From contig JAHJOO010000056.1 in NCBI GenBank assembly GCA_018820275.1, positions 25,628 to 89,627 of the forward strand: a DNA stretch of 64,000 nt, given 5' to 3'. The DNA comes from Alphaproteobacteria bacterium. GTDB lineage: Bacteria; Pseudomonadota; Alphaproteobacteria; Caulobacterales; Caulobacteraceae. Below the pieces are notes generated by a model. The model made no database searches, was not told the DNA's origin, and saw only the letters and a list, made by a program, of their open reading frames with translations. Both the position numbers and the translations under genes were made by a program. Numbering within the stretch: position 1 is the first letter of the stretch; every line of letters begins with the position of its first letter. Of this stretch, positions 2,322-55,429 are shown one piece after another.

Positions 2322-2323
2322 GG

Positions 2324-3205: not shown

Positions 3206-3378
3206 GGATGTTCCCCCGATCAGGCGAACCGAACATCGATCGATCATGCTTAAGAATCGCTTACTCAAGTCTCGGTCACATCTACTTAGGTAGACAATCA
3301 ATACGTGACGAGAATGGACAACCAGAACGTGGCGCAGGGTTTACTTCCATTTCATCTGGATCCTTTAGAGCTGTCAGC

Positions 3379-30085: not shown

Positions 30086-30160
<75 letters not shown>

Positions 30161-33146: not shown

Positions 33147-33398
33147 TCAGCTGCGGATGCGCAGGCCGGGTCCGTAGCCGTCGGCGTCCAGGAAAATGAC
33201 GCCCAGGTCGCCGAAGGTCTGCACCAGCCGCGCGGCGTTGACGGCCGTCAAGACCGACGCCCCCGACGCCTCGGCGCGCCGGATAGTGTTGACCCCCAGG
33301 CCGGAGCGCGCCGCGAGGGCCGCGACCGACAAGCCGGTGGCGGCGCGCGCCGCCGCTAGCTGAGTGGCAGTGGGCGCATTTTGCCCATCTGAGCGCAT
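33147..33398 (-). CDS. XRE-family helix-turn-helix regulator
   Basis: An HTH is present (TQLAAARAATGLSVAALAARSGLGVNTIRRAE). The gene is divergent from the integrase module. An alternative ATG lies at 33455. Confidence 0.6.
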   Translation of the reverse strand: MRSDGQNAPTATQLAAARAATGLSVAALAARSGLGVNTIRRAEASGASVLTAVNAARLVQTFGDLGVIFLDADGYGPGLRIRS

Positions 33399-33437
33399 AT
33401 TGACTCTTCCGGGAAAGCGGTGTAGCTCGCAGTCCTG

Positions 33438-33454
33438 TGGGCGCAAATCGCCCA
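33438..33454. promoter_or_regulatory. Palindromic operator candidate TGGGCG-CAAAT-CGCCCA. A near-copy lies at 33371-33387.
   Basis: It has perfect 6-bp arms and sits in the divergent XRE | GIY-YIG-like region. The 17-mer at 33371-33387 (TGGGCGCATTTTGCCCA) matches it at 14 of 17 positions. Confidence 0.4.
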
Positions 33455-33480
33455 TATGGGCAAAAGGAGCTCACATCGCC

Positions 33481-34035
33481 ATGCTTTCTTCTTATCTGAT
33501 TCAACCCTCCGGGGCGATCCGTCAGTTCATCCACCAGATCCCCGAGGAGGGCGGCGTTTACGCCATGCTCCTGGATCACCCCGAAGCGCTGCAGCCGGCC
33601 CTCGACCGCGCCCGCCTGCGTCTGGACCCTCTGCGCCTCGGCAAGCGCGCGATCCTCTACCTGGGCGCCACCGACGACAGCCTGCGCCGCCGTCTGAAGT
33701 GCCACCTGTCGAATGACACGGCGCGCTCCACCTTCCGCCAGAGCCTGGGCGCGGTCCTGGCCGAAGAACTGAAGCTTGAGGCCAGGCCGAGCGGCCGGCG
33801 CGGCTTTTCGTTCGAGCCCCGCAGCGAGCTGATCCTGTCGGACTGGATTAACGACCACATCTCCATCGCGGTGCGCAGCGCCCCCCATGCGCTGGTCGAG
33901 GAAAAGACGCTGATCGCGCTGCAGGACCCGCTCCTGAACATCGCCGGGCGCCGCGCGAAGGCCTCGGCCGAAACGGTGCTGATCCTGCGCCGCCGCCTGC
34001 GCGGCCTGCCCTTCGAGCAGAAGGCGCTGAACTGA
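33481..34035 (+). CDS. GIY-YIG-like domain protein
   Basis: GVYAML...ILYLGATDDSLRRRLKCHL resembles the GIY...YIG nuclease motif pair. An AAAGGAG RBS lies upstream. Confidence 0.45.
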   Translation: MLSSYLIQPSGAIRQFIHQIPEEGGVYAMLLDHPEALQPALDRARLRLDPLRLGKRAILYLGATDDSLRRRLKCHLSNDTARSTFRQSLGAVLAEELKLEARPSGRRGFSFEPRSELILSDWINDHISIAVRSAPHALVEEKTLIALQDPLLNIAGRRAKASAETVLILRRRLRGLPFEQKALN

Positions 34036-34343
34036 TGCGCGCAGCCTCTAGCATCCATCAGGGCCCCGCCGCCACGTCCGACGGCGCGTCCCAAGCTGCC
34101 GCCGCCGTCGAGCGGATGACCACCGGTGAAGTTTTGGCGCTGGCCCGCATCTCCCGGGCCACCCTTTGGCGCCGCATCAGCTGCGGGCGCCTGCCGCGTC
34201 CGGTCGACCAAGCGCGCCAGGCGCTGTTCCTGAAGGCTGACGTCCTCCAGGCCCTCGCCGCCGTCCGCCAGTCCGACTCAATCAGTGTTGCAATCGAGCA
34301 ACGGCTGGAGGCGCTGCGCCAGCGCCGTCAAAAACAAGCTTGA
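34035..34343 (+). CDS. AlpA / excisionase-like small DNA-binding protein
   Basis: MTTGEVLALARISRATLWRRISCGRLPRP is an AlpA-type HTH. The gene has an ATGA overlap with the previous gene and lies immediately upstream of an integrase. Confidence 0.55.
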   Translation: MRAASSIHQGPAATSDGASQAAAAVERMTTGEVLALARISRATLWRRISCGRLPRPVDQARQALFLKADVLQALAAVRQSDSISVAIEQRLEALRQRRQKQA

Positions 34344-34346
34344 TTA

Positions 34347-34398
34347 TGGGCAACACACAGAATAAACCGCCATCATCATTCTGGGCAACACACAGAAT
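34347..34398. repeat. Two copies of the 17-bp direct repeat TGGGCAACACACAGAAT, upstream of integrase 1
   Basis: The exact copies lie at 34347-34363 and 34382-34398, a 35-bp period. Confidence 0.85.
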
Positions 34399-34432
34399 GA
34401 AAGGAGATGATCACGAACAAGGAGGACTGAAG

Positions 34433-35701
34433 ATGAAGAACTACGGACCCTGCGTGACTGTACGCCCGCGCAAAGGCGGCATCGTGAAGTTTCGCTTCGA
34501 GGTGCGGCGCAACCGCCCGGAGGACTGGCCCGCCACCCGCACGATCCTCGTCAACGGGCGCGACGGGGTGAAGCTGGCGGACATGACCCCGCAGATGGAG
34601 GCGGAAGTCGAACGTCAGGCCGAGGCCCTGTTTCGCCAGCTCGGGCAGCTGCGCGCGCTCGAAAACGCCGAATTGCCGCGGCCGCCGAAGATCGAACGTT
34701 CATGGGAGGAGCTGATCGCGCTGCGCCGCGAACACTCTAACTGGCAGCGCCTGAAGCCGGCGTCGCGCGCCACCTATGCGTCCGTCCAGAAGCGGATCGT
34801 CGAACTTCTGGGCTGGGACCCCGCGCTGGCACCGTCCACCATCCTGGAATCGCAGATCGACCGCATCTTCCTGAAGCGGATGGTCAGCCCCTATCGCCGC
34901 AAGGCGCTTTATCTGGAAACGCGCCGCCTGCTGGAGAAGGCGGTCCGCGAGAACTGGCGCGATCCGGCGCTCACGATCACCTACAGCGGCACCCTGCCGG
35001 AATCGGAGCTGCGGGTGTGGACGGCGGACGATCTGCGCTGTGCCGTCACCCAGGCAATCACCGACGGAGAGCGCGGGCTGGCGCGCCTGCTCCTGACCCA
35101 GTGGGAGATCGGCCAGCGTCTGCAGAGCGTGCGCTTCTTCCGCTACGGCTATCAGTACGAGAACGGCTGCTTCTTCTACAAATGCCGCAAGACGGGCCGT
35201 GAAATCCGCATCGAGGTGAAGAACCCGCGGGCCCGCGCGGTGCTGGACGCGACCTATGAGCATGGCGCCTACATGTTTCCCAGCGCGGAGGACGGAAAGC
35301 CTTTCACGGGCGTCCAGCTGACCAAGGCCTTCACGCGCCTGCGCCGCCAGCTCAAGGGCTTCGACCCCAAGCTGCAGTTGCGCCAGCTGCGTCACACCGT
35401 GGTGCTCGAGCTGGCCCTAGCCGGCTGCAACATCCCGGAGATCGCCTCCATCACCTCGCACAATCTGGCGACGGTGCACCACACGCTGAAGCACTATCTG
35501 GCCAAGGACTCCGAACTGGCCGACCGGGCGATGGAGAAGCGCGAACGCCGCCGCCTGGAGCAGGTGTCGGGCCTGAGCGGCGAAGTCATCGTCGATGGTG
35601 CCCGCCGCATCTACATTGGCGATCTGCCCAAGGCGGAGACGCCGCAAGGTCCGCCGGCTACGAAGGGCCGTCCGGGAAAAGCGTCCGATGAAGAGCGCTG
35701 A
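34433..35701 (+). CDS. Tyrosine recombinase / integrase 1
   Basis: The C-terminal catalytic region LRQLRHTVVLELALAGCNIPEIASITSHNLATVHHTLKHYL carries the R...H..R/H...Y pattern. A strong RBS (AAGGAGG) lies 7 nt before the ATG. Confidence 0.8.
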   Translation: MKNYGPCVTVRPRKGGIVKFRFEVRRNRPEDWPATRTILVNGRDGVKLADMTPQMEAEVERQAEALFRQLGQLRALENAELPRPPKIERSWEELIALRREHSNWQRLKPASRATYASVQKRIVELLGWDPALAPSTILESQIDRIFLKRMVSPYRRKALYLETRRLLEKAVRENWRDPALTITYSGTLPESELRVWTADDLRCAVTQAITDGERGLARLLLTQWEIGQRLQSVRFFRYGYQYENGCFFYKCRKTGREIRIEVKNPRARAVLDATYEHGAYMFPSAEDGKPFTGVQLTKAFTRLRRQLKGFDPKLQLRQLRHTVVLELALAGCNIPEIASITSHNLATVHHTLKHYLAKDSELADRAMEKRERRRLEQVSGLSGEVIVDGARRIYIGDLPKAETPQGPPATKGRPGKASDEER

Positions 35702-36296
35702 ACACACGCGTGTGCAGCCTGATCGTCGTCTGCACGGGAGCGACTTCCTCGAAGCCCCGCTCGGCCTGATCCCTCAGGACAAAGGTCCTGGACGCCACCT
35801 TGGTCCCTCGCCCGGTTCCCCGGGCGAGGGTGAGGGTGGAGATCCCGTCTGGCCGCTCGAGGGTAGCCAGAGCAGCGTAGCCGGAACCGTCCCCTCCGAC
35901 GACGACAAAGCCGCTGGGCCGGTCACTCTCCCGGACATTAGCGGCCGGATCCATCAGGCCGCCCAGCTCGATCATGCACGCCAAAGCCTCACCCAGGGTG
36001 ACCGCGCGCTTGAAACCCGCCAGCTCCGGAGCGGTCAAGGCGCCGGTCTCAAGCACGAAGACCGCGTCTGCGAGCTCTTGAGCGGCCTGGGCTGCTTGGG
36101 CGGGCTGAAATGCGCCGTAGAACCCCAGGGTCAGAGCCGCTGCATCCCGAGCCGTCATCTCGGAAGCTCCGCGGCCCCGCTTGGTCGTCTGGATCAGGCC
36201 AGCCTCACGGACCGCCCTTGCGACGTGATCAACCGCGCCTCGCGGACGGTCGTCGATCGCCGCCACGGCGTCGACCAGAGCAGGCAGCCGGGCCAT
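35658..36296 (-). CDS. Hypothetical protein (212 aa)
   Basis: This ORF is divergent from the second integrase module. The N-terminus (VARAVREAGLIQTTKRGRGASEMTARDAAALTL) resembles proteins seen next to alphaproteobacterial prophage integrases, from recollection only. Confidence 0.4.
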   Translation of the reverse strand: MARLPALVDAVAAIDDRPRGAVDHVARAVREAGLIQTTKRGRGASEMTARDAAALTLGFYGAFQPAQAAQAAQELADAVFVLETGALTAPELAGFKRAVTLGEALACMIELGGLMDPAANVRESDRPSGFVVVGGDGSGYAALATLERPDGISTLTLARGTGRGTKVASRTFVLRDQAERGFEEVAPVQTTIRLHTRVFSALHRTLFPDGPS

Positions 36297-36349
36297 CCGA
36301 TTTTCACTCCAGCGCCCGCAGGCGCGTCATCAGGGAGACTGTTCAATCT

Positions 36350-36772
36350 GTGTCATACCCAGAAAAGGTCCCTGGCGTCCAGCGCGCTGATCCTTCGCCG
36401 CGCATTCAACGCCGGCCCTCCCCCGCCGACTGGGGCGACGAGGAACCGCTCACGCTCCGTGAAGCGCTCGATCTTTTTTACCCCGACGGGCCGCTCACGC
36501 TCACGTCGTTCCGGACAGCCATACGCCAAGGCCACCTGCGCGCGGTCAAACGGCTGGGCCAATGGTGGGTCACGCCGGCGGCTGTGCGCGGCTTGTTCGA
36601 GCTTCAGGAATGGGTAGGCCGCGAAAAGGCGCGCGCCTTTACCTCCGGGCAGGGCGCGTCGACCGGCGCACCGGACGTCCGCTCGCCCCCATCTACTTCA
36701 TCCGGGACGGCGATAAGAACATCAGCACGGGCTGCGGCCCGGAACGCCTTGAAGAAGCTGAAATCGCCCTAG
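36350..36772 (+). CDS. Putative small HTH DNA-binding protein with a GTG start and uncertain extent
   Basis: LTLREALDLFYPDGPLTLTSFRTAIRQGHLRAVKRLGQWWVTPAAV is an excisionase/MerR-like HTH. The frame runs about 160 nt into the integrase-2 ORF. Confidence 0.3.
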   Translation: MSYPEKVPGVQRADPSPRIQRRPSPADWGDEEPLTLREALDLFYPDGPLTLTSFRTAIRQGHLRAVKRLGQWWVTPAAVRGLFELQEWVGREKARAFTSGQGASTGAPDVRSPPSTSSGTAIRTSARAAARNALKKLKSP

Positions 36773-37842
36773 CGGAGTATGTCACGGCGCGGCAGGCGGC
36801 CCTGCGTCCCAAGGGACGGGCCCAGGATCCTGAAGATGTCCTGATCGACGAGGTGGTCGCCCTCTACGCTCTGGAGAAGGCGCCCAAGGCCGCCGATCCC
36901 AAGGCGGTGGCCGCTCGGCTCGGCGCGATCCTCGACTGGTGGTCGGGGCGGACATTGGGCCACGTGCGCCGCAGCACCTGTCTGGCCTATGTCGCTCATC
37001 GCGTTCAACAGCCGGTCAAGTCGTTTAAAGACCCGTCGCGCGCGCGGCTGGTGTCGGCGGCGGGGGCGCGCCGTGAGCTCGAAGACTTGTCGGCGGCGAC
37101 GAGCTGGTGGGCCGCCGAGCATCCCCTGACCCGCAAGGTGACGTTCACCTATCCGGAAACGGGGGGCGAAAGCTCCCGCGACGCGCTTAGCCGCGCCCAA
37201 GTCGCGGCCCTGTTGCGTGCGGCGCGTGGCGCGCGGTTCCGCGATGGACGCTGGGAGCCGACCGCCGCCTCGACGCGGTCGAACCGCGCGCACCTGACGC
37301 GCTTTGTGCTGCTGGGCGTCTACACCGGCAGCCGCCCCGGCGTGCTTCCCAAGCTGCGGTGGTCGCCGTCAGACGACAGCGCCTGGGTCGATCTGGACCG
37401 GGGCTGGATCTTCCGCCGAGGTCGGCGCGAACCAGACAAGCCGAACAAGCGCCGTCCGATGCACCGCATTCCCAAACGGCTTCTCGCCCACCTGCGCCGG
37501 TGGCGCCGCCAGGACGACGCGCTGAACGCCGAGCGCGCCGAGCATGGGTTGGCCCCCGTCGAAACCGTCCTGCACCACGGCGGGCGGTCTCTGAGGGGCA
37601 GGGTCCGCACCGGTTACGAAGGGATCGTCGCCGATGCAGGGCTTCCCGAGGACGTTACGCCGCACTGGCAGCGCCACACCTGCGCGACCTGGCTCATGGA
37701 GGCCAACGTGCCGCTGTCGCGGGCGGCGCAGTACCTGGGCATGACCGTCCGCACGCTCGAAAAGCACTACGGCCACCACAGGCCGGATCACCAGTCCGAC
37801 GTCGGCCGCGCGCTGGCGCGCGGCGGCCGCGAACAACCCTGA
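36610..37842 (+). CDS. Tyrosine recombinase / integrase 2
   Basis: The N-terminus (MGRPRKGARLYLRAGRVDRRTGR...YFIRDGDKNISTGCG) is typical of an alphaproteobacterial integrase family. The C-terminus (HWQRHTCATWLMEANVPLSRAAQYLGMTVRTLEKHYGHH) is the catalytic region. Confidence 0.8.
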   Translation: MGRPRKGARLYLRAGRVDRRTGRPLAPIYFIRDGDKNISTGCGPERLEEAEIALAEYVTARQAALRPKGRAQDPEDVLIDEVVALYALEKAPKAADPKAVAARLGAILDWWSGRTLGHVRRSTCLAYVAHRVQQPVKSFKDPSRARLVSAAGARRELEDLSAATSWWAAEHPLTRKVTFTYPETGGESSRDALSRAQVAALLRAARGARFRDGRWEPTAASTRSNRAHLTRFVLLGVYTGSRPGVLPKLRWSPSDDSAWVDLDRGWIFRRGRREPDKPNKRRPMHRIPKRLLAHLRRWRRQDDALNAERAEHGLAPVETVLHHGGRSLRGRVRTGYEGIVADAGLPEDVTPHWQRHTCATWLMEANVPLSRAAQYLGMTVRTLEKHYGHHRPDHQSDVGRALARGGREQP

Positions 37843-37861
37843 ACAGCAACGGAGGACCTGC

Positions 37862-38343
37862 ATGAAACCAACGACATCACCTCTCCCAACCCACAACGGA
37901 ACCCCCGGATCGCAGGGCTCCGGTCGAAAAACTTTGACGTTCATGATCCCGGGGGAGGCGCGGGCGAAGGCGCGGCCTCAGGTTCGGTCGTTCGCCGGGC
38001 GGCCGCAGATGTATAAGGACCGGGTCACAGCCACGTTCGAGAACTGGGTGCGGCTGCACGCTGAAGAAGCGCTTGGCGATGCGCCGCGCTTCGAGGGCCT
38101 GTCGCGATGAGCATCGAAGTCATCACCGAGCCCGCCAAGTCGCACAGCGCGCGGAAAAGGAAGGAAATGATCGAGGGACGCATCAAGCCGACGCGGTATC
38201 CGGACCTGGATAATGTCGTGAAATCCGTCATCGACGGATGCAGCCGCTCAACGATCAGGGACGACGTCCTGGTGGTGGCGATCACCGCCTCGAAGTCCTA
38301 CGGCGAGCGGGCGGCCACGTTCGTGTCCATCGCCGAGGTCTGA
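37862..38343 (+). pseudogene. rusA: RusA-family Holliday-junction resolvase, split into two ORFs by an apparent 1-nt frameshift
   Basis: ORF 37862-38110 has a RusA-like N-terminal half (IPGEARAKARPQV). ORF 38107-38343 has the C-terminal half (KPTRYPDLDNVVKSVIDGC...DDVLVV). The junction GGCCTGTCGCGATGAGC would read through (GPVAMS) with one extra C. Confidence 0.6.
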
Positions 38344-38462
38344 CCCTTGAACGGCTTTGGGGCGCCACTGCAGCCTTGCGGAAAGCCGGACGCGCTGCAG
38401 GGCGGGTCCTCTGATCCGCACCGCCGCATGGGGCCTGTCTAGCCGCGGCGGCCGCCCCGCCC

Positions 38463-39209
38463 CTAGTGGGGGGCCTGACGGGCGATCACCGCCTCTTTAT
38501 GGAACCCGGCGTTGTCCAGCCGGCGGGCGAAATCCGTCAACGCCTCAGGGGGACCGTGCCGCCGGAGCGCTTCGATCGCGATGGCCAGAAGCGTCTGATT
38601 GTCCTCGGTGAGCTCCCCGCCGGGGCCTCGCTTCAAGTCGCGGATGAAGGGATCCATCCAGGCGGCGTCGCCGCCAGACGGCGCTGCAATTTCCCCGTTC
38701 GGCCGCCCGGCCGCTGCCTCCGCTCCAACAGCGCCAGCCTGGTAAGATCGCCGGGGATGCTCGATCGCACGTCTCGCGTCGGAGGCCGTGAACTCGGCGC
38801 GCACGGTTTCCCCGTTGGGGCCGGAATACTCGAAGCGCACATCGCTGTCTGACTGGGCGGCGAGCTGGAAGATCTCCACGGCCGACCGGTTGCCAGCGGC
38901 GCGGCTGGCCTGATCGACCCCGTGGTCACGGGTCAGGGCCACATGCTTGCCGACGATCTCCGCGAAATCGTGCAGGGTGACGGCCACGGCGGCGATGGTG
39001 AAGCCGGTCTTCAGAACCTTGAAAATGATCTTTAGTGAGCCGCTGTCTGCCCGGGCGATGATGAGTTCGCCGCCTCTGGTCTGACGTTTGTACTCCGACG
39101 CCAGAGCCCTCAGAACTTCGCTCAGCTGCGCGGCGCTGACCGGCTCGCGGTTGTCCAGGTAGAGGGTCAGGGATCCAGGAGCAAAGGCATCATCCTCAAT
39201 CGGCGTCAT
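38463..39209 (-). CDS. Hypothetical protein (248 aa) immediately downstream of the short pAgo
   Basis: Its start lies 14 nt after the pAgo stop on the same strand. No family was recognised. The ATG was chosen within a longer GC-driven ORF. Confidence 0.55.
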   Translation of the reverse strand: MTPIEDDAFAPGSLTLYLDNREPVSAAQLSEVLRALASEYKRQTRGGELIIARADSGSLKIIFKVLKTGFTIAAVAVTLHDFAEIVGKHVALTRDHGVDQASRAAGNRSAVEIFQLAAQSDSDVRFEYSGPNGETVRAEFTASDARRAIEHPRRSYQAGAVGAEAAAGRPNGEIAAPSGGDAAWMDPFIRDLKRGPGGELTEDNQTLLAIAIEALRRHGPPEALTDFARRLDNAGFHKEAVIARQAPH

Positions 39210-39223
39210 CGTCCAAGCGGCCC

Positions 39224-40780
39224 TCAGATATAGAATTTGAATGGTTGTTTCTCGGCGCCTGCAGCGCTGCCCATGACCAGGATGTCCCCGACCTTGTCGG
39301 CAAACCGGATTGTCACAGGCATGGCGTCGCTGAAGTTGCAGGCGTTGTAGTTGATCTTGGTCAAACCCAGAATGTCGGTAAGCACCGCGCCGATCTGGGG
39401 CAGTCCGTTTGAGGCTCTCAACACCGTCACGTAGAGAGGGTTGGGCGTCTCGGGGCCGAGATAGGTGTCGATCCGCGGCGCGTAACCCGATGCCCACAGA
39501 TAGGCGTCGCGCTCGCCCAGGATCAGCGCTGTGCCCCGCAGGCAAGGATAGTCGCCGTCGCGGAAAAGCTTGGTTTCGCCATAGGTCGATTTGATACGGA
39601 CGCCGACGACATTGGTTTCCTGCGGCGCGGCTTCCACGAAGGCCTCCCACTCCTCATCGTTGAAGCTCGTGCGGCCATGGATGAAGAGCTCCGCGGGGTA
39701 GGCACCGAACTTCAACTTGTAGGTCTCCACCACCATGGAGAGGAGGTTTTTTGCGACAGCGCCGGAGAGATGAAACTCCTTCTCCCGCGTCTGCCAGGGT
39801 CCGTTCGCTCCGCGGAACACCACGCCGTCGCCCTCGCTCAGGAACATCTGGGCGGCGCAGCACACATAGTTCTGGGGGTGGTTGGGCAGCAGCTTGAAGA
39901 CGAGACCCACATAGCAGACCCCCGGTCTCATATCCGCAATGCGCCAAGGCGGGCTGCCTTGGGTCTTGTAAAAGAGGCCGGTCGCCAAGTTCCAAGCCAC
40001 CGTCGCCTCGTCCTGGGTGCCGCGGCGCGGATAGCCGGCGGCGTTCAAGAACTCCTGCGGCGCCAGCGTCGTCTCCCTCACGAGCTGGGAGGGCGCAGCC
40101 AGTTTGAGCAGCCGCGCCTTGATCTGCCGGTGGAAGTCGGGAACGTCGTCGAACACCTGCTCCAGCGACTGGTCGATGACGCCCGCCAGAAGGGGCAGAT
40201 CAGACCGGCTGGCCTGCTTCTTCCCATGCTCGCCGGGCGTGAGATCGCCTTTGCGCCGCTTGCCCATGTTCGGGCGGCAGGTCTCGAAAACGATCTCTGG
40301 GACCACGAACACCCAGACATCGATGGCGACCTCCTCGTGCGCCGCGTGCCGTTCGACCGGCGCGAGAAAGAGGTCAGCGGTCGCCGCAACCGCCTCATGG
40401 TGGTTGACCACATTCACCGTCTCGGCGATCCGGCCGCCGTCTATGGCGTAGGTCACGAGCTTTGCAGGGTCCAGGCGCAGGCCGAACGCCTCTTCTAGGC
40501 CAGGAAAATCGGACAGATGCAGCCGGTGCAGCTTGTCCCGCCGTCCTCGCGCCGGGATTTTCACTTCACCGCGCAAGACTTCAGCCCATTTCCGGAACAG
40601 GCTGAGGCCGTGCTGCGTGCCCACGACGCCAACGCGTATGTCGGGCCTGTCCGGGCCGTTTACCGGGCCGTAGAGATAGAGCCCGTCCTTGGGGTGATCC
40701 GACACCTGTCCATGCCTGAAACCCAGGCGAGGCTCTTCGATGTAGGTGGCTGGCAGCGAGGTTTCGGCGAAAACTGTCAT
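39224..40780 (-). CDS. Short prokaryotic Argonaute (MID-PIWI only)
   Basis: This 518-aa protein has PIWI-like blocks ([33 protein letters not shown]) and no N/PAZ region. It has an ATGA overlap with the upstream TIR-APAZ gene. Confidence 0.85.
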
Positions 40781-42156
40781 GCGTCCGCTTCCTCTTCCTG
40801 GAAGCCTGTCAGGGTCGACCGGTCCGTCTCTTCGGCATCTTCACCCAGCTGGTGGGTCTGGCGGGCAGTGACCGGTGCGGTGAACTGAACCGGCATGGCG
40901 TCCAGCGTGATGCGGTCTCCGGAACCCACCGCGAGATCCACATAGGGGCTTTCTCCCGCCAGCAGCTCCATGAACGCCATCAGCCGCCCGTGCCAGGCCT
41001 TGTTACGCCAGCCCGAACAGATGGACCGGCGCAAGCGGAACTGCGCGCGCTTGTCCGAGATGACGACGGTCTTGTCCGGCCCCGTCAGGTCCGAGAACAG
41101 GACGCGGCCCTTCAGCTTTAAATGGGGGTAGGGGAAAAGGCTCGGGGTCGCGCTGACCCCGTATTCCCACACCCGGTTTTTGGCCTTGTTGCGCAACATG
41201 GAGTTGCGCCGCTCGCCCTGGCGGCCCCAGCTCACGCGCTTGCCCAGGCCGAGTTTCGTGGCGTCGACGTGAAAAGCGGTGGCTCCGGAGAACTCTCGGG
41301 CGAAGAAGCCTTCGCGGACGCAATGTTTCTCCCACGACTGACGCAGAAGATTGTTCAAGAGACCGTGGGCCTCACGGCTCTTGATACCCAAGGCCCCGGT
41401 GCCGTCTGACATGAAGTCTTCGAGGCCGATGCGGGCTTCGATCCGGAACCGTCCCACGGGGAGGAAATGCTCCTCCATCTCGAGTGGGGAGACGAAGCCG
41501 AGAAACCCTTGGCCGAAGCGGGCAAGAGGAAGGCTGAAGCTGCGGCCGAGACGGCCGAGCAGGGCGTCGTCAGCCGGGCTTGTGGGCGTCAGATAAGAGA
41601 TCTCATCGGGCATACTCATGATGCGCAGCCAGTTCGACGTCAGCGTCTCGGGCGAACGCTCCACGGCGATCGCCAACCGCCGCTGATAGGCTGACCAGGC
41701 CGGCTGGATTACGCCGCCGCCCGCTTTGACGACCCCTTGGCGGTCCAGCGATTTCAGCAGGGAGGTCAGTCCCGGCGCCCAGCCAGGACAGAAGTCCACA
41801 TACTGCAGACCGCCGATGCCGAAGACCTTTTTGAAAGGCTTGAGCCGCAGAGGAATAATGAAGTTCGGATCCTGAAGCTGTTTGACGAGATCCTCCGCGA
41901 TGCTGATCTCCTCACGGACCCCGCGCCGCTGGAGCGTCTCATCGCTGCAGCACAGCAGCATACGCGCCGCCCGCTCCTGGAGTGACGATGTCAACTTCCC
42001 CCGCCACTCGTCCCCTGCGTCAAGGCCCAGGATGTCGGCGAAGACCCGGTAGCCAGCGGCTTCCAGCCGCGGGGCCAGCCACAAGACGAACGCGTCGTCG
42101 CCAGGCGTCGCCTTAGAGATGAATATCGAATCGCGAAGGGCGGAATCGTTCTCCAT
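40777..42156 (-). CDS. TIR-APAZ protein, the SPARTA effector partner
   Basis: The N-terminal TIR-like domain ([31 protein letters not shown]...[21 protein letters not shown]) is followed by about 300 aa of APAZ-like region. The gene is translationally coupled to the short pAgo. Confidence 0.85.
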
Positions 42157-42513
42157 ATGTACTGGATAGGGCTTCCGCTTTTGGTTGTCCCGGCAAAACC
42201 TTCTCTGACCGACGAACGTTTGAGGGCGTCGCTTGTTCGCTCAGTCTGCGTGGGCTGTGATAGCTCGATATTGACCAGCAACAGATGAGATCCATAGGGA
42301 CCGCTACGCACGAGTCAGCAGCCCCAGCAGGAGGAATGCCTCAGCACGGGCGCGCATGGGGACTTCGGCCATATGCTGTGGAGTTCGGCACACCTAGCCG
42401 AGCAGGCCGACACGAACTTAGGCTCAAGAGCGCGAAATTAGTTCGATCTGTCAAAAACGATGCGATCTATAGTAGTCGACAAATAGGTTGAACTGACGAA
42501 GGGGCGCAGTTGG

Positions 42514-44118
42514 ATGGGGGGTGAAGTGTCAAAATCGGCGCTGCTCGCCCATGCCCGATCCGCGGCCAAACACCTTTACGACCCGAAACATGCCCTGGAG
42601 GCACGTGCCGGCGTGTGCCTCGATCTGCTTTCAAAAGACGGTGCCGACGAGCGCCTTGATGGATTCCGGCGGGCTCTGCATGCATTGCCGATAGACGAAC
42701 GCCACTACTGGGTTGGAACGCTCTACACCCTGATGTTGCCAAGCAAGGTGCGGCGGTCGCAAGCCACATACTTTACGCCGCCTCCTGTGGCCGACGCCGT
42801 TGTCGAAATGGCGATTGCGGCTGGTTTCGATCTCGCCAAGGACGACGTGCTGGACCCCGCTGCCGGCGGGGCCGCCTTCCTCTCCACGCTCGCTGGTCGG
42901 ATGTCGATCGCTGAGCTGCCGCCACGCGAGGTATCGCACCGTCTGAACGGCATCGAGATCGACGAGGGCCTTGCGGTGCTTTCGCGTCGGCTGATTGCCG
43001 AACGCCTCGGCGCGCCGCTATCCCGCGAGGTTATCGTCTCAGGCGATGCGCTGCGTTACCCGATCCCAGCCTCATACGGCCTGGTCATCGCGAATCCCCC
43101 ATATGGCCGAGTATCGCTCGACGATGTCTCGGGCAACGCTTGGAAACACGTCGCGCACAGGGGTCACGTCAACAAGTACGCGTTGTTCACCGAGCTGTGT
43201 TTCCGACACGCTAAGCCGGGCGGGGTCGTCGCGCTCGTCATCCCTTCGAGCTTCCGGGCGGGTCCACTTTACGACCGCATGCGCACGTTCATCCGCTCGC
43301 AGGGCGAGGTGCTGAGCATTGGATCAATTGCTGGTCGCGACGGCGTCTTCGTCGACGTGGCGCAGGACATCAGTGTCTTGCTTGCGCGGAAGGGCAAGCC
43401 ACACCCTCGCGGCGCGATGGTATCGTTTCCGGTCATCGGGCGCGCGACCGCGACCGAGGCAGTCGTCGAGCAGGCATTGCCGCAGGAAGCTGGCGATGCA
43501 TGGCCGCTGCCAGCAGCGGATCCGCGCGACTACGGCGGCGCAACACTCGCCGATTACGGCGTCACGGCTCGCGCCGGATATTTCGTTTGGAACAGGGAGC
43601 GGGACAGGCTGGTCCAGAAGTTGGAGCGTCATCAGCGCGGCTACCCCCTCATATGGGCTAAAAATGTGCGCCTGCACGAATATTGCCGGCCCGCAGGCAA
43701 GAACAATGCGAGGGCAGATTTCGTCACGTTCGACGACGACAGCGCAGCGATCATCAAAACCGTAGCCGCCGTCATGCAGAGGACGACCAACGACAAGCAG
43801 CCGCGCCGCTTGATCGCCGCCATGGTCGATCCCGCAGTCATCGAAAAGTGGGGCGGGTTCGTGACTGAGAACCACACGATCGTGCTCACTGCGGACGATC
43901 CCGAGAAGCTGCGAACCGCCGTTGCCTTGCTCAACACCTCCGCGGTGGATCAGCGCTACCGGCGCGTGTCTGGCACCGCGGCTGTCTCCGTCACTCTCCT
44001 GCGGCAGCTGGATTTGCCAGAGCCGTCCGCCTTCGCATCCGCGCTCGTCAATGCAGGTGGCGACACCGAAATCGCTGCGATGACCGCCTATCGGCGGCTC
44101 GCGCTGGCAGACGCCTGA
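42514..44118 (+). CDS. N6-adenine DNA methyltransferase, Eco57I/gamma-class-like, in the DrmMI-like position
   Basis: The SAM motif VLDPAAGGAAFL and the catalytic motif IANPPYG (43093-43107) are present. Its stop overlaps the next start (TGATG). Confidence 0.85.
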   Translation: MGGEVSKSALLAHARSAAKHLYDPKHALEARAGVCLDLLSKDGADERLDGFRRALHALPIDERHYWVGTLYTLMLPSKVRRSQATYFTPPPVADAVVEMAIAAGFDLAKDDVLDPAAGGAAFLSTLAGRMSIAELPPREVSHRLNGIEIDEGLAVLSRRLIAERLGAPLSREVIVSGDALRYPIPASYGLVIANPPYGRVSLDDVSGNAWKHVAHRGHVNKYALFTELCFRHAKPGGVVALVIPSSFRAGPLYDRMRTFIRSQGEVLSIGSIAGRDGVFVDVAQDISVLLARKGKPHPRGAMVSFPVIGRATATEAVVEQALPQEAGDAWPLPAADPRDYGGATLADYGVTARAGYFVWNRERDRLVQKLERHQRGYPLIWAKNVRLHEYCRPAGKNNARADFVTFDDDSAAIIKTVAAVMQRTTNDKQPRRLIAAMVDPAVIEKWGGFVTENHTIVLTADDPEKLRTAVALLNTSAVDQRYRRVSGTAAVSVTLLRQLDLPEPSAFASALVNAGGDTEIAAMTAYRRLALADA

Positions 44119-46865
44119 TGGCACGTAAACGGCCCTATAATCGCCCACCGGGCACGCAGGGACGGGACAATGTGCGGCAGGTGGAGCTTGCCCGGCGCCA
44201 GGCGCTCGTCGCCAAGCTCACAGAGACAGCGACGAAGCGGGCCGCCAATCCAGTCCCACCATTGCAGCCGAAGCCGGAGCAGCCGTCGCGCGACGTGGAC
44301 GGTTACATGGCCGCGATCGCGGCCCATCCGCTTTATCGGCTCGGTGAAAAACACGCCGCAGAGCTCACCCTGACGTACGCGACCCTAGTCCGGTCAGCCG
44401 TTGAGATTGCCGGACAGGGTGACGCCAAGGTCGTGATGCCGTGGCCGCCATCCAAGGTGTCCCCATCGGCAATCGTCTCGCTGCTGACGATCGGCGCGAT
44501 CGGCAGCGCACCCCGCGAACATGTCGAGTTCCAAGGCACGCAGATTCCAAGCCGAGGGCGCGCCGACGAAGTGCGCGCGGTCGTGTTTCCGTACGCCCGC
44601 AGCACACACGCCCAAGCGAGGCAGGTGCAGGTCGATAGGCACGAGTTGGGCCGGATAAACTTCGAACACGTCGCGCGCTATCTCGGCAGCGACAGTGACG
44701 CGGCAAAAGATCTGCATCAGGTTCTCGCACGGGTCCGCCAGCTGAACGGACGCGCGTCTGACGGACGCGAATACGCCGAGTTCGAGCACCCCATCCTTGA
44801 CGAGGTCATTCCCCACGGCCCCGCCGGTGGGGACCGCCCATCCAACAGCTCTGTCCTTTGGCGTACGCGCGCCAAGACCGACATTGGCCGTCAGGCGCGC
44901 TCGGGCGAGGCGGATGATCCCGCCAAAGCCGCATACTTCATGTTCACGGTCCGCCGTGACGACCGGCTGGGCAACGAGCTGCGTGCCATCAAGCGGCCGC
45001 TTGATCTCCTCATCCTCGACCTGTCACGCAACGCTCGGGACCGCATCGGTTGGGACTGGGTGCGACGGGCTGGCGAGATGGTCGCGTCTATGCGGGAGAT
45101 CCACCCCTCGGCAGGCATCCTGGCCGTCGTTGATGATCCATGGTCATATCGCGCAGCCCGTTTTGACGTGCTCGCGAGGAGGCGGACCGGCAAGAATGGC
45201 AAAGCCTTCCCTGCGCATGGAAGCGTCGTCTATTGCCCGACCCCCGGGATACTTCAGGACGTCGGGCAGTGCGCTCCCTCATTCGAAGGTGCGCTGTCCA
45301 TCACTGTTGATGGGTTCTACGGCGACGTCGACCGCAACATCGAGCACCTGCGCGAACTCGCCAACCGCCTATCTGACATGGGGGATTCCGCCGGCGCCGC
45401 GACCGCCCGCAACCTGATGGGGACGGTCCGCCGGTCGGCGAGCTTACCCGGCTCGATCGCCGAGCTAAGCCGCTTTATCGAGCGCGAGACGTCGGCCGCT
45501 ATCGCCGACGACCGTCTCGCGACCTACCGCGCGACCGCCGACATCAGCACTTTGACCGACCCCACCAGCCTCGCGAGTCAGGTCGACGCCGAGAAGGGAG
45601 TGGCGGCTGAAGCCAGGTCTGTGATGCGAACGCTCGACCAGGCAACGCCGATGGCCTCGCTGATCGAGGATGTGATGCAGCCCGCGCTGCGATCGAGCTC
45701 CCGTTCCGTCTTCGTGTTCAGGTCCGACATGATCGCCGAGTTCGCCGCGGATAGGCTGGGCAAGTCGCATCCCAAGCTCGCCGAGCGGATCGGAAGCGGC
45801 GTCATACGCTTTGGCGGCGCACGCGCGCTCAACACCGTCGCCGACGCGCCGGCTTCCGCTCGCAACCAGTTCAAGCGCGCCATCGTCGTCGCCCCCACGA
45901 CGTCGACGATACTGGCCACGCTGGCGGAACCGTGGCTACCCGAGCAGATGGTGTTCCTGGCCGATGCGGATACGCTTGCGTTCGCCGCCCGCGATGCCGC
46001 GCGCCTCGCTAATGAGATCGGCGTTGACGCGCTTGCGGCGCGGCTGCGGACGTTCGCCGAGAAGGCAAACAGCCGCGTAGTGGAGATCGGCCGCCACACG
46101 GTGCAGCTGGATGCGGAGGCACCGTCGGAGGACGTCGAGTTCCCGACCGGTTCGGTAGTCGACCTCACTGGCGGCGGTCGGGGCGAACGCCGGCTGGTCG
46201 AAATCAAGCTCGGCAACGGGCAACGCATCATCGCCCGCCCGTCAACTGGCATGGTCTTGCGGGATGACGGCGCGGCGACGACCACGTTCGTCGAGCGACC
46301 CGCGTCACAGTTAAGACGTGGAGATGAAGTCTGCGTGATCGGAGCTGGGTTCATCGAGCGCGCCCGGTCGCTCGTGAACATCCGCGCGACCGCGGCCGAG
46401 GAAATCCGCGAATACCACAATCAGGTGGCGAAGCGGTTTGCCGCCATACCCGAGGACTCCACGAATGGCCGGCTCCGCGTCCTGGTGGCGCGGATGGGCC
46501 AGCCGGCTGTGCCGATCGAGCGCGCCAGATACTGGATCGACCTGCGTGATGAGATCGACAAGCCGCTCCACGAGGTCGTGCCGCATGCCCCGCAGGACCG
46601 GGACACCTTCATGCGGTTCACAGGGGCGCTCGGGATCGGACAGAAGCTGGCCGAGAGCTTCTGGCTGTGGGCCGTAGTCGCCCAACGTTACCACCGGATG
46701 CGCGCGGGGAACATCTTCCATGACGCCTTCCGCGGCATCCTAACTGATCCCCATGCCGCGCTCGCGAGCAACCGCAACCGGAGCGCCGACATCAGGGCGC
46801 TCCGCGCAATGGCTGAGGAGCACGTCGGGACCGTCGCCAACACGCGGATTATCGAGGCAGTATGA
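44118..46865 (+). CDS. Large uncharacterised protein (915 aa) with no helicase or NTPase motif visible
   Basis: The gene is translationally coupled on both sides (TGATG and ATGA). No Walker A or DEAH motif was found on reading the translation. Confidence 0.7.
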   Translation: MARKRPYNRPPGTQGRDNVRQVELARRQALVAKLTETATKRAANPVPPLQPKPEQPSRDVDGYMAAIAAHPLYRLGEKHAAELTLTYATLVRSAVEIAGQGDAKVVMPWPPSKVSPSAIVSLLTIGAIGSAPREHVEFQGTQIPSRGRADEVRAVVFPYARSTHAQARQVQVDRHELGRINFEHVARYLGSDSDAAKDLHQVLARVRQLNGRASDGREYAEFEHPILDEVIPHGPAGGDRPSNSSVLWRTRAKTDIGRQARSGEADDPAKAAYFMFTVRRDDRLGNELRAIKRPLDLLILDLSRNARDRIGWDWVRRAGEMVASMREIHPSAGILAVVDDPWSYRAARFDVLARRRTGKNGKAFPAHGSVVYCPTPGILQDVGQCAPSFEGALSITVDGFYGDVDRNIEHLRELANRLSDMGDSAGAATARNLMGTVRRSASLPGSIAELSRFIERETSAAIADDRLATYRATADISTLTDPTSLASQVDAEKGVAAEARSVMRTLDQATPMASLIEDVMQPALRSSSRSVFVFRSDMIAEFAADRLGKSHPKLAERIGSGVIRFGGARALNTVADAPASARNQFKRAIVVAPTTSTILATLAEPWLPEQMVFLADADTLAFAARDAARLANEIGVDALAARLRTFAEKANSRVVEIGRHTVQLDAEAPSEDVEFPTGSVVDLTGGGRGERRLVEIKLGNGQRIIARPSTGMVLRDDGAATTTFVERPASQLRRGDEVCVIGAGFIERARSLVNIRATAAEEIREYHNQVAKRFAAIPEDSTNGRLRVLVARMGQPAVPIERARYWIDLRDEIDKPLHEVVPHAPQDRDTFMRFTGALGIGQKLAESFWLWAVVAQRYHRMRAGNIFHDAFRGILTDPHAALASNRNRSADIRALRAMAEEHVGTVANTRIIEAV

Positions 46866-49800
46866 AGGGTCTGTCGAACACGAAGCTGTCTGGGATCGAT
46901 GTCGAGCTCAAGGAAGCGGTCTGCGACGCGCTGGTGAATGCGCTCGTCGAACGCGTGAGCGGCACCGACGAGCGAGGGCAGACGATCTACGGCGGATCGC
47001 CGCGACGTGGAATATTCGCTGGCCAGCTGCTCCCGCGCTTCGACGTCAGCGGCGCCCTCGACGAGACCACCGACATCCGCATCGCCGCGATCGGGATTGA
47101 CTTTGTGGTGGGTGCGAACGGCTCCGCCGCTATCTCAGCGACGCCCCGATTCTCCGTATACGTGCGAGTCATCCCACAGTGGCGCGACCTCTCTGGCGGT
47201 GGCGGCCAGCTCGATTTCGACTTCAAGCTGCAGAAAGCGATCCAGCAGCAGATCGACGCTGCGATCCGCGTCGACCGGACGACCGCCCTGAAGGCCGCCA
47301 ACCTCGAACGGCCCGACTGGAAGGCGATGGACGAGAATCGCCGGTCGAAGGTGCGCGCCGAGCGGGCCCAAATCCTCGCCGATGTGCGCGTCAAGGCCTA
47401 CGCTGCATTCGGGATCAAGCTGGTGTCGGGCGTGCCCGAAGAACCTGCCCCGACCCAAGAGCCCCCGGCAGGAAACGGGGACGCCACCGGGGAATCCACC
47501 GAACAGCCGGCGCCGATCTCGCGTCTCATCCGCGAGGGCCGAGAGCTACCGCTGACGCTCGTCGACCCCGCGCCGATACCGGGCAAGTGGCGGCGGCTCG
47601 ACCTCTCCCTCCCAACCTTTGATTTCGATAGCGAAATGGGGTCGCCGGCCCTCGCCGCCGCGCTCGTCACCTACAATGCCAGCCTCGCGGCGGCGGTGGC
47701 GGCCCAACTCGAAGCGTGGGCTACCGGGGAGGGTGCCGCCGAGGCATGGCGCGACGTCAACGTCTCACCCGGCGACACCTTGGACGAGGCCCGGTGGAAT
47801 GCGGCCGTCGCGGCGCTTGCCACCAGGCCCATCGATCGTACGCGCGTCATCCCTGATCTTTCCCGCATCGCCCTGAAGGTCGAGCGCCAGGTCGACTTCC
47901 TGGATTCCACTCGGCTGTCGCTGCGGATCATGCTGGATAACCAGTCACCCGAGCCCACGCCGCAGGACGCGCGCGGTCGCTGCAACACCGTCTTCGGCGC
48001 CGGACTGACACTCGCCCTTCCCGCCGCCGCGCACCGGCCGCTCCGGCTCGATAGGGTTGAGCCCTCCTACCGCTTCCGCGACCACCTCGACTATCCGGCG
48101 ATCGGGCTCAACTGCGGGGTCGAGGCGGTCGAAGCCGGGGACCTACTCACTCTGGGCACCACCGCCGCCCCTCGCTTCTCGCAACCGCGGATCGTTGCCC
48201 GAAATATTGACCTGCCCTTTCAGTTTGCGATTCTCAAGGATCGGTCCTTCGACGCGAAACGGCTGCTCGAGCTGCCGCGTGCATACAGCGAATGGATAGA
48301 CGGCCAAGAGAAGCGGCTGCGCGACACCGTAACGAAGGGCCTGACACGGGACGATGCGGCGGTCGAAAAGGCTCGTCTGGCGAAGGACATCGCTGCCCAG
48401 CGCGCCGAGGCTCGCTACATCGAGCGCGGCGTCGAGATCCTGATCGCGTCGAAGGAGGCCAGCGACCAATTGGCCGGCAAACCGCCGGGCGATGGGGGCG
48501 ACCTCGCGCGACGCGCCGCGCCCTGGATGGCATGGACGCTCACCAACGAGGCCTTCGCGTTGCGCGATGCGCACGACACGAGCCGAGGCTGGCGCCTGTT
48601 CCAGATGGCGTTCGTGCTCTCCCACATCCCGGTGTTTGCATCCCGCATGGCCGAGTGGCGCGAATTCCACGACTCGATGCTCGACGAGGACGGAGCCAGC
48701 CTGCTCTACTTCCCGACCGGCGGCGGCAAGTCGGAGGCGTTCTACGGCACACTGCTGTTTGCCATGTTCCTCGACCGCCTGCGCGGCAAGGACCGCGGGG
48801 TCACCGCCTTAATCCGCTATCCCCTGCGGCTCCTGACACTCCAACAGGCGCAGCGATTGCTCAAGCTGGTCGTGCGCGCCGAAATGGTGCGCCGTCGCCA
48901 GAAGGTCGGCGGGTGGCCATTCGAGATGGGCTTCTGGGTGGGAAGCCAGAACACGCCTAACCACTATGGTGCGTTTCGCGCCGATATCCCGTTCGCCAAC
49001 GATGCTGACTTCGCTGACGACAGCACGCTCGACGGTGAGACGGGCGACGAAGACCAACGCGCCCGCGGCCGCCGATACGCCGAGGCCCGCGAAGCTTTCG
49101 ACAAGATCCCCGAGTGCCCGGTTTGCGGAGAACCCACTGGTTTGCGGCGGGACGAGAACGAGGGTCCGACCGGGCGGCGCGTGGCCATCGTGTGCTTCAA
49201 CGACAGGTGTGCGTGGAACCGCGAGCACGGCCGGCGACACCCTCTCCCGTTTCTACTGACCGACGATGCCATCTACGCCCGCGCGCCGGCGATTGTGCTC
49301 GGCACCGTCGACAAGCTGGCCATGCTGGGCCAGCATACCGGCACGATCTCCAAGGTGCTCGGCATGTTCGGGCTCGCCCGCCGTGTCGATCAATGGGGGA
49401 ACCTGTATACGCCGCGGCGCGAGGAGGACCTGCGCCGCGATCCGGCCGACGACAACAGCTCGAACGTGCATCCCGCATACGCGGACGGGAAGCGGGTCTT
49501 CCACGATCCGTTCCCGTCGCTGATCATCCAGGACGAGGCGCACCTTCTGGAGGAGAGCCTCGGGACGTTCAGCGGCCTGTTCGACACGCTGCTCGACGCG
49601 GCGTTCGAGGAGATCGCCGAGATGGGCGGCGATGGACTGGACGTTGCCCGGCGATGGACCGGCGACGGCTGGGGCGCTCCTCGGATGCCGAAGGTCATCG
49701 CGGCGACGGCCACAATCTCGGCGCCCGAACGCCAGCTCGAGACACTCTACCAGCGGCACCCGTTGCGCTTCCCCTATCCCGGTCCGGATCTCTACCATTC

Positions 49801-54118: not shown

Positions 54119-55429
54119 CTATCGCTTGTGCAGAAAGTGCTCTGGTCGGAGCTCGGCGAAAACGCCTTGTCGACGCCAATGTTCAGCTTCGGCCTTCATC
54201 TCCGGCGTCCGCTTCTCGGCGTCGAGAATCTCCAGAACCAATAGATTGTCCTCGGCGGATACGTGCGGCCAAGCGACGCCGATGAACGTCGTCTCCTTCG
54301 CAAAGGTGTCGGCCGCAACGACGAGATGTTGTCGCAGATGGCGGAGCACCAAGTCCTCTTGCGCCTGTTCGGACATCCAGTCGGGGCGCTTGGGATAGGC
54401 CAGCCACAGATAACGGACGGTGGGGTCCGTAGGTGAGGGAACCGTCGCCGCCCAGAAGGTGGTCTGGTCCGGTTCGTCCAGAATGCTCTTGAGGGCTGCA
54501 GCAATCATTCTCCTCTGGAAACGCCCCTCCCTCGCAAGCATTCGCATGGCTCGCTCGTGGTTCGACGGATCCTGGGCGCGAACGCCAGCTAGGTGCGCTC
54601 GGTGGAACTCTTCCACCAAACGATCGATCACATAGCTTCCGGCGTTCTCCCGGAGCGTGTGCGCCGCGCGGCCAGAGGTCTCATAATCCTTCCAGGCACC
54701 CTGTCGCGCGCGCCCACTCGAAAGTCCTTCCGGCGACACTTCGAACCGCCCGCTGCGAGTCCAGGCCTCCGTCGCGGCTGCGAGCAAATCGGCTTCCCGA
54801 AAGGCGCAACCCGGGTTCGACCTCAAGGTCGCCTCCCGGCTCGAAAGATACTCCACTAGGTCGGGCAAGGTGTCGAGATGGCCCAAGATCAGATCCACGT
54901 CCCGGCCTTCGAAGACGTGTACGAACCGGTCCTGTACGTAGAGCGGCCCGATCGTGAACGGATCCGACGGCGAGTGATCCGACCAAGTCAGCCCCGGCCA
55001 ACCGTCGGGCGTTACGCCCGGTTCACCATGCGGACGGGCCACATTTATCAGATGGTAGGCGCGTTCTCCGACTGGCGCGAGCTCATACCATAAGCGCGAC
55101 CGCGCTCCACGGTCGGTGAAGACAGCCGCCCCCGGTCGTTCTAGCCGTCGCACGGCGCCCCCTAGCTGTCTGACGCCTTCCAGGACGGCGGCTCGATGCC
55201 AGCGCTCCCATGCGACCGGTAAGGGCACGGTGAGATCGAACCGGCACGCCTTGTCCGAGAAGACGAGAACGTCGCGCCCAAAGGGAACGATCAGATCCGA
55301 GAGTTCCTTGCCCGGCTTTCCGAACGGGTTCGCGATGGTCCATGGCTTCAAAAATGCTTGGTGTCCCAATGACGCCAGATAAGCCTCGGACAAGCTTCCG
55401 CCCATCTGCCGAAGGTCCTCGTTCGTCAC
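54119..55429 (-). CDS. Hypothetical protein (436 aa), possibly with an N-terminal nuclease-like module
   Basis: It has a 4-nt overlap with the upstream DUF4238 gene. The N-terminal block GKELSDLIVPFGRDVLVFSDKAC resembles endonuclease-fold core motifs, but this is a weak assignment made by eye. Confidence 0.6.
   Translation of the reverse strand: MTNEDLRQMGGSLSEAYLASLGHQAFLKPWTIANPFGKPGKELSDLIVPFGRDVLVFSDKACRFDLTVPLPVAWERWHRAAVLEGVRQLGGAVRRLERPGAAVFTDRGARSRLWYELAPVGERAYHLINVARPHGEPGVTPDGWPGLTWSDHSPSDPFTIGPLYVQDRFVHVFEGRDVDLILGHLDTLPDLVEYLSSREATLRSNPGCAFREADLLAAATEAWTRSGRFEVSPEGLSSGRARQGAWKDYETSGRAAHTLRENAGSYVIDRLVEEFHRAHLAGVRAQDPSNHERAMRMLAREGRFQRRMIAAALKSILDEPDQTTFWAATVPSPTDPTVRYLWLAYPKRPDWMSEQAQEDLVLRHLRQHLVVAADTFAKETTFIGVAWPHVSAEDNLLVLEILDAEKRTPEMKAEAEHWRRQGVFAELRPEHFLHKR

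Follow-up and report, generated by a model that had tools for sequence, protein, structure and literature searches.

The window analyzed here is a stretch of 64,000 nucleotides (nt) from contig JAHJOO010000056.1 of an alphaproteobacterium of the Caulobacteraceae, and our subject is a run of three closely packed genes on its minus strand: a short prokaryotic Argonaute (pAgo) system of the SPARTA type (short prokaryotic Argonaute and TIR-APAZ) and a third open reading frame (ORF), called ORF3 below, that follows it. The first gene (40777-42156) codes for the TIR-APAZ protein, the NADase effector subunit of SPARTA, with 459 amino acids (aa) and the catalytic Glu at residue 83. The second (39224-40780) codes for a short pAgo of 518 aa composed of MID and PIWI domains, which is the guide and target sensor subunit. 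On direct reading, the stop codon of the former and the start codon of the latter share an ATGA on the same strand, a 4-nt overlap ("...GCGGACGCATGACAGTT"), and the TGA stop codon of the pAgo gene (39226-39224) is separated from the ATG of ORF3 (39209-39207) by a minus-strand spacer of 14 nt (39210-39223). ORF3 (38463-39209) codes for 248 aa from the ATG at 39209 and belongs to a rare, unannotated family. A GAGGG similar to a Shine-Dalgarno site (39225-39221) lies 11 nt ahead of this ATG, overlapping the pAgo stop codon. The coordinates, lengths, ATGA overlap, and 14-nt gap given by the initial annotation all proved exact when compared with the ORF list and the sequence read directly.

Upstream of the TIR-APAZ gene, the region 42157-42292 (minus strand) is the presumed leader of SPARTA with a putative promoter region, and it is conserved to about position 42290 with L001, a Logan contig that is 92% identical to window positions 36166 to 42292. 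The initial annotation had named a terminator or an independent promoter between pAgo and ORF3 as a finding that would speak against its idea, and neither turned up, as a minus-strand scan of the spacer revealed no terminator-like, promoter-like, or sigma-70-like site; with only 14 nt, there is no room for a terminator or a promoter. Past the other end of ORF3, the folding of the intergenic region toward a convergent RusA gene is not stronger than that of shuffled sequence (z = -0.87), and hence a clear terminator was not predicted there. As ORF3 lies so close to pAgo, it is probably transcribed together with SPARTA on one mRNA.

The assignment of the first two genes to SPARTA, already made in the initial annotation, held on the Pfam and PADLOC matches and on full-length alignment to solved chains. 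The TIR-APAZ protein contains a Pfam TIR_2 domain (residues 11 to 127, E = 6.5e-19), and the PADLOC Aga_TIR-PNTD1-PNTD2 (APAZ) model covers residues 4 to 456 (E = 7e-155). Residues 7 to 455 align to chain 8qlo_A (3e-45), and there is also a full-length match to 8fex_A (1e-41), an ungapped alignment in which window residue 7 pairs with chain residue 1 and E83 corresponds to E77, the residue whose replacement (E77A in Crt/MapTIR-APAZ numbering) abolishes NADase activity (PMC9097488). The pAgo matches the PADLOC pAgo_I model (2e-201), and its residues 12 to 518 align with the solved short pAgos 8qlo_B (1e-112) and 8fex_B (2e-111), each of 507 aa, from end to end. It has MID and PIWI domains only, as a SPARTA pAgo does. 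Members of the short pAgo clade have a PIWI domain lacking the catalytic DEDX tetrad (PMC9097488), and by membership in this clade, the same is expected of the window pAgo.

Judged by its sequence, the pair is a canonical two-gene SPARTA of clade S2A. Given its full-length homology to characterized SPARTA proteins, we can ascribe their mechanism to it: the short pAgo, with small guide RNAs bound, would recognize complementary single-stranded DNA of the invader, this recognition would lead to oligomerization of pAgo/TIR-APAZ heterodimers, and the TIR domain, through E83, would then hydrolyze NAD(P)+ and stop the infected or plasmid-bearing cell. The characterized systems (MapSPARTA, CrtSPARTA, and BabSPARTA; PDB entries 8fex and 8qlo) consist of the same two proteins, with TIR-APAZ preceding pAgo and overlapping stop and start codons; both window proteins align with the solved chains over their full length, and the catalytic TIR Glu is conserved. 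The sequence identity of the window pair to the solved systems is modest, and the window differs from the characterized systems in having a third gene at 14 nt. As a complex of two proteins, SPARTA is functional in vitro as well as in Escherichia coli (PMC9097488). Mechanistically, the window pair offers nothing new.

ORF3 is a real protein-coding gene. It sits within a stop-to-stop ORF of 395 aa, and we rejected a 395-aa version overlapping pAgo: the additional upstream part has a third-position G+C content (GC3) of 0.46, a noncoding composition, versus 0.79 in the 248-aa part, and the alignment places the start of the family homologs at the same methionine as that of the 248-aa protein. The G+C content of its three codon positions (0.70, 0.50, and 0.79) is like that of neighboring genes. 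Between the window and L001, the ratio of nonsynonymous to synonymous substitution rates (dN/dS) is 0.18 for ORF3, 0.09 for TIR-APAZ, and 0.06 for pAgo, and 25 of the 39 differences in ORF3 are third-position changes (binomial P = 8e-5). Long spurious ORFs are frequent in this DNA, and within ORF3 there is an antisense ORF of 128 aa (38466-38852, plus strand, GC3 of 0.73) that a crude GC3-based caller favors, both of which would suit a chance open frame in DNA of 66% G+C. However, the substitution pattern just described, the 99 homologs similar in length (with E values as low as 1e-38, at 39% identity), a confident AlphaFold2 (AF2) fold, and the calling of the same gene by independent pipelines on other contigs leave that explanation with practically no probability, and we consider it refuted by homology and substitution pattern. 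The antisense ORF also illustrates that GC3 alone misleads in this genome; homology backs the minus-strand gene.

The ORF3 family could be detected only by exhaustive search. With phmmer against 1.84 billion representatives, ORF3 retrieved 99 proteins at E ≤ 1e-3, 11 of which also pass E ≤ 1e-10, and this corresponds to about 100 clusters at 50% identity; nearly all of these cluster representatives measure 240 to 280 aa, and many align end to end. By word-index protein search, ORF3 retrieved no more than the 95% relative on L001, and a 40-sequence alignment no more than two proteins. Conservation is concentrated in three blocks, one N-terminal (L-A-x-D-Y-[RK]...G-[RK]-x-L-V-V...G-S-L), one central (G-x-[RK]-[ST]...S-x-S-x-V-x-x-x-Y...G-E), and one C-terminal (I-A-x-x-L-x-x-R-G-x-x-x-x-A-x-x-V-R). 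Best conserved are D39 (92%; ORF3 itself has E), Y40 (98%), L49, G57 (100%), S58 (97%), F82, [S/T]109, A117, L231, G235, and A240. The alignment has no conserved set of His, Cys, or Lys residues, and hence no obvious catalytic site.

The claim of the initial annotation that the tightly linked third gene has no recognizable domain stood, since no model of Pfam, PADLOC, or NCBIfam matched ORF3 itself; against PHROGs, it had no match at E ≤ 0.01. Nor was any Pfam, NCBIfam, or PADLOC model matched consistently by the family members (40 of them scanned against Pfam). Phrog_9226, of unknown function, was matched by 12 of the 40 members, with a best E value of 6e-7. A WYL domain was considered and set aside, as the matches were weak (Pfam E = 0.036 in two members and a PADLOC value of 0.0015 in one) and probably reflect only a shared beta-hairpin. 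Hydrophobicity is not consistently sufficient for a transmembrane segment across the family, and the isoelectric point of ORF3 is 5.8.

The AF2 model of ORF3, built with the family alignment as input, has a mean predicted local distance difference test score (pLDDT) of 86 and is predicted to comprise an alpha/beta domain (residues 13 to 150), a disordered linker (151 to 181), and a C-terminal four-helix domain; modeled alone, the N-terminal domain reaches a pLDDT of 90 and a predicted template modeling (TM) score of 0.84. Foldseek searches of PDB with the whole model and with the N-terminal domain produced no significant match (best E of 0.014 and 0.008, respectively), and query-normalized TM-scores did not exceed 0.37; the top rows, release factors and small ferredoxin-like or ACT-like proteins, carry no weight here. 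The ORF3 profile retrieved nothing but designed helical repeats from the PDB sequences. In BFVD, the best match to the model was A0A8S5T657, an uncharacterized Myoviridae protein of 270 aa (Foldseek E = 5e-8, TM-score of 0.47), and there was a weak match to a DUF6575-containing phage protein (E = 8.5e-4, TM-score of 0.41, 10% identity). Going by the model, the alpha/beta N-terminal domain would carry the conserved D-Y...G-S...[S/T] patch, followed by the flexible linker and a small helical domain that may serve for output or oligomerization. Our best guess, held with low confidence, is that ORF3 may be a soluble, nonenzymatic binding or sensor protein.

The initial annotation had suggested that ORF3 might be an accessory, a regulator, or an immunity component of SPARTA, and this role lost its ground when we analyzed other SPARTA loci. 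A pAgo-alignment scan of 185,579 species genomes retrieved 593 relatives, of which the closest 80 (57 to 74% identity) were kept with 6 kb of flanking sequence each. In 78 of these 80 loci, a TIR-APAZ homolog lies directly upstream of pAgo on the same strand, and in 73, the sequence past pAgo extends for 1 kb or more. Searched with a hidden Markov model of the ORF3 family, none of the 80 yielded a member, even with filters off and E values up to 10, where only noise was recovered, and there was no ORF3 relative either at L118, the locus of the closest distinct metagenomic SPARTA relative (P0003, 75% pAgo identity). A same-strand ORF begins within 250 nt of the pAgo stop codon in 51 of the 80 loci, and the genes tested tightly downstream of other SPARTA pAgos included DUF4917, DUF3800, TIR_2, ArdC, an N6/N4 methylase, DUF2971, an rve integrase, and HEPN/RES-NTD1-like genes; in L118, an HNH-like gene and a HEPN_RES_NTD1-RES gene come next after pAgo. 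The place after SPARTA is therefore often occupied, by differing genes.

Two of these contexts deserve description. In L118 (800-12426), SPARTA lies in a dense defense island, between an upstream pair of AAA ATPase and Peptidase_S8 genes and a downstream same-strand run formed by the HNH-like gene (287 aa), the HEPN_RES_NTD1 plus RES gene, and genes for three proteins with no Pfam hit. In a SPARTA lineage of the Hyphomonadaceae, the loci (L030, L031, L033, and L035, 7534-9051; L079, 2666-4165) have a gene for about 505 aa that begins 11 to 12 nt past the pAgo stop codon and shows a weak HEPN/RES-NTD1 match; in L033, it is present as two ORFs. The products of this gene are 51% identical between L030 and L079, whose pAgos are 90% identical. 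As it evolves fast and yet keeps its position, this gene is a better candidate than ORF3 for a lineage-specific third SPARTA gene.

The other side of the association was approached through the family. We collected 33 further loci by exact-protein lookups, tblastn hits on Sinorhizobium plasmids, and a degenerate DNA pattern, built by hand from the L-A-x-D-Y-[RK]...G-S motif, run over the JGI metagenomes. In a trial on the collected loci, this pattern matched five family loci and no SPARTA locus; in the JGI metagenomes, it gave 24 loci, 23 of them confirmed as family, and in IMG/VR, it gave no match. A tblastn search with ORF3 against plasmids and phages found nothing, and the same search with two other members found four Sinorhizobium plasmids only, and no phage. 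The sequence upstream of the family gene extends for 1.8 kb or more in 17 of the 33 loci. None of the 33 contains a pAgo, so that the recurrence of ORF3 homologs with pAgo, the neighborhood check put forward in the initial annotation, was not borne out. Both results, from the SPARTA side and from the family side, agree with the published finding that the APAZ protein is the sole protein specifically associated with short pAgos (PMC9097488).

No neighbor family recurred in an all-versus-all blastp comparison of three genes on each side of the family gene. In at least 12 loci, the upstream gene is divergent, so there the family gene has its own promoter and is its own transcription unit. Genes of conflict systems or mobile elements often adjoin the family genes, and housekeeping genes sometimes do (TctC and acetyl-coenzyme A synthetase, fumarase, and PhzF). 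The former include integrases within about 6 kb (L082, L086, and L089), type III restriction-modification (R-M) genes (L086 and L089), CHAT and AAA domains (L095), PIN_12 and Fic (L104), PIN_8 (L086), Mrr_N (L113), a patatin (L093), a large truncated gene (989 aa) beside YgjP and probably HsdR (L085), and, on a Sinorhizobium medicae plasmid (L090), a 2048-aa protein amid kinase, protease, DUF2726, and HNH genes. Type I R-M genes are also among the neighbors. In L099, the family gene (4220-5110, minus strand) is the first of a same-strand run whose other genes encode a 151-aa protein, a C5 DNA methylase, and a GHKL (HATPase_c_3) ATPase; a gene with a caspase domain lies close by on the other strand. 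L099 is the only locus in which the family gene heads a defense-like cluster.

Taken together, we consider it likely that the window contains a known SPARTA and that ORF3 is an autonomous passenger of the defense island, a real gene that is unrelated to SPARTA function. ORF3 would be a single-gene module placed at the 3' end of the SPARTA operon within a small integrase-bearing island, from a family whose members would occur alone beside varied defense, mobile-element, and occasional housekeeping genes, with no constant partner. Its action would be separate from that of SPARTA, with conflict involving phages or mobile elements as the most likely setting.

Several points weigh against this interpretation. 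The 14-nt gap with no terminator is tighter than the spacing at most family loci (20 to 270 nt, or a divergent neighbor), and a functional coupling in this lineage is possible, because the 14-nt spacing is kept in the 92% identical L001. The family gene also lies at the same-strand 3' end of defense-like operons, as it does after a type III-like R-M cluster in L089, after the 2048-aa protein gene in L090, after the patatin gene in L093, and likewise in L095, which fits a promiscuous add-on. Many family loci are short metagenome contigs. Moreover, the SPARTA-ORF3 arrangement was found in one independent lineage only (the window, contigs L116 and L117, and L001), and the missing co-occurrence means that the arrangement is not general; it says nothing against a function here.

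The tight spacer, kept in L001, and the 3' position after defense-like genes are what an alternative would build on, according to which ORF3 is a promiscuous modular accessory, recruited to the 3' ends of abortive-infection and restriction systems and here to SPARTA, for instance as a regulator holding back or licensing the NADase or as an added sensor. The predicted architecture, in which a flexible linker connects a small helical domain to a globular one bearing the conserved polar patch, would suit an adaptor, and PMC12799240 offers a precedent, in modules that unrelated immune systems have acquired repeatedly. However, the divergent upstream neighbors argue against a general 3' recruitment, and several loci lie beside housekeeping genes (the gap to TctC is 20 nt). 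No neighbor family recurs, none of the 81 other SPARTA loci has an ORF3-family gene, and SPARTA already functions with its two proteins. We regard the add-on as unlikely, although it is the main surviving alternative to the passenger. A broader proposal, that the family represents a new conflict-system protein, either a stand-alone antiphage or antiplasmid gene or a portable 3' add-on, and that it modulates the SPARTA NADase response here, seems to us rather doubtful.

The genes on the other side of ORF3 bring in one more possibility. A tyrosine integrase gene (36562-37842, plus strand; Pfam Phage_integrase, 2.9e-9) and a RusA resolvase gene, present as two ORFs (37862-38110 and 38107-38343, plus strand; Pfam RusA, 4.5e-13), converge on ORF3. 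A blastn comparison matched window positions 36166 to 42292 to L001 positions 1061 to 7172, a block of about 6.1 kb that begins ahead of the integrase and ends about 136 nt upstream of TIR-APAZ, and the gene order integrase, RusA, ORF3, and SPARTA is the same in L001, L116, and L117. Beyond about position 42290, the contexts diverge, with a DISARM-like cluster in the window versus the 3' end of an AMP-binding enzyme gene in L001. We can deduce from this shared block that SPARTA, ORF3, RusA, and the integrase travel as a compact unit with ORF3 as cargo.

ORF3 could instead be part of the backbone of a small integrative element (integrase, RusA, and ORF3), serving its maintenance, regulation, or protection. 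Its position between SPARTA and the RusA/integrase pair would fit this, as would the common block from integrase to leader in a different context in L001, the integrases near three of the family loci, and the relatives in phage collections (PHROG 9226 and the BFVD Myoviridae protein). On the other hand, no integrase or RusA family recurs beside the family genes, many family loci have no mobile-element gene in the available sequence, and ORF3 shares its strand with SPARTA, begins 14 nt past pAgo, and converges with RusA; neither the degenerate pattern in IMG/VR nor tblastn with three family members in GenBank phages gave a match. This backbone role appears quite improbable, and we retain the passenger interpretation.

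The block is part of a larger region of foreign composition. GC3 is roughly 0.9 in the core up to 30 kb and 0.62 to 0.87 from a tRNA-Val gene (30086-30160) to about 59 kb, a drop that indicates an acquired island of roughly 29 kb (window positions 30086 to 59000). Besides the integrase described above, which is the second one, and the SPARTA-ORF3 block, the island contains genes for a GIY-YIG protein (33364-34035), a first tyrosine integrase (34340-35701), a DUF4238 protein (55426-56313), and an IS1-like transposase (56819-58048), together with a DISARM-like cluster consisting of a methyltransferase (MTase), a 915-aa protein, and DrmA. Neither a search for att-type repeats of the 3' end of tRNA-Val nor one for repeats on both sides of the integrase-SPARTA block turned up anything convincing.

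The DISARM-like cluster (42514-51190, plus strand) is divergent from SPARTA. Its N6 methylase matches the PADLOC models MTase_II (2e-98) and mad2 (2.5e-21), its 1442-aa protein is a DrmA-like helicase (9e-94), and the 915-aa protein has no match in Pfam, PADLOC, NCBIfam, or PHROGs. The DrmB, DrmC, DrmD, and DrmE models were not matched by any of the three proteins in a PADLOC scan that covered these three and not the rest of the island; as far as tested, the cluster therefore falls outside the standard DISARM gene set. The split of RusA into ORFs of 82 and 78 aa with an ATGA overlap is likely a frameshift or pseudogene in this lineage: it is also seen on L116 and L117, the contigs with the exact ORF3 protein, and L001 has a single intact RusA of 160 aa. 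Where the first integrase ORF is annotated to begin, two tandem copies of a 35-nt repeat (34343-34412; 80% identical; ATTATGGGCAACACACAGAATAAACC...) may mean that the true integrase start is further downstream, or they may be protein-binding sites.

Among short pAgo systems, that of Sulfolobus islandicus, SiAgo-Aga1-Aga2, invites comparison; Aga2 is a membrane effector belonging to it. According to PMC11788926, this is a system that truly includes a third associated protein, and for this reason, it is a natural precedent for the idea of a third component. The ORF3 family differs from it in that it has no consistent transmembrane segment, is unrelated to the PADLOC sequences, and does not co-occur with pAgo. 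As for phage relatives, A0A8S5T657 is similar in length to ORF3 and matches it in structure, and PHROG 9226 is linked to the family through other members; neither relative comes with a function. DUF6575 marks a single-gene antiphage hit of an E. coli pangenome selection (PMC9519451), and that protein, like the ORF3 family, is a lone gene in mobile or defense contexts. The structural resemblance is weak and only a lead: DUF6575 is not among the matches listed for the 40 members (25 of the 41 Pfam families at E ≤ 1), the part of the phage protein that aligns may lie outside the DUF6575 domain, and no PADLOC PD-system model matches the ORF3 family.

These results remove a tempting false lead, as tight spacing after a defense operon is not evidence of membership in it. 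The slot behind SPARTA is occupied by defense or mobile-element genes that differ from lineage to lineage. What lasts is a defined, previously unannotated family with a confident predicted structure and no solved relative, found in defense islands and integrative elements, which makes the ORF3 family suitable for candidate lists of single-gene defense or regulatory functions.

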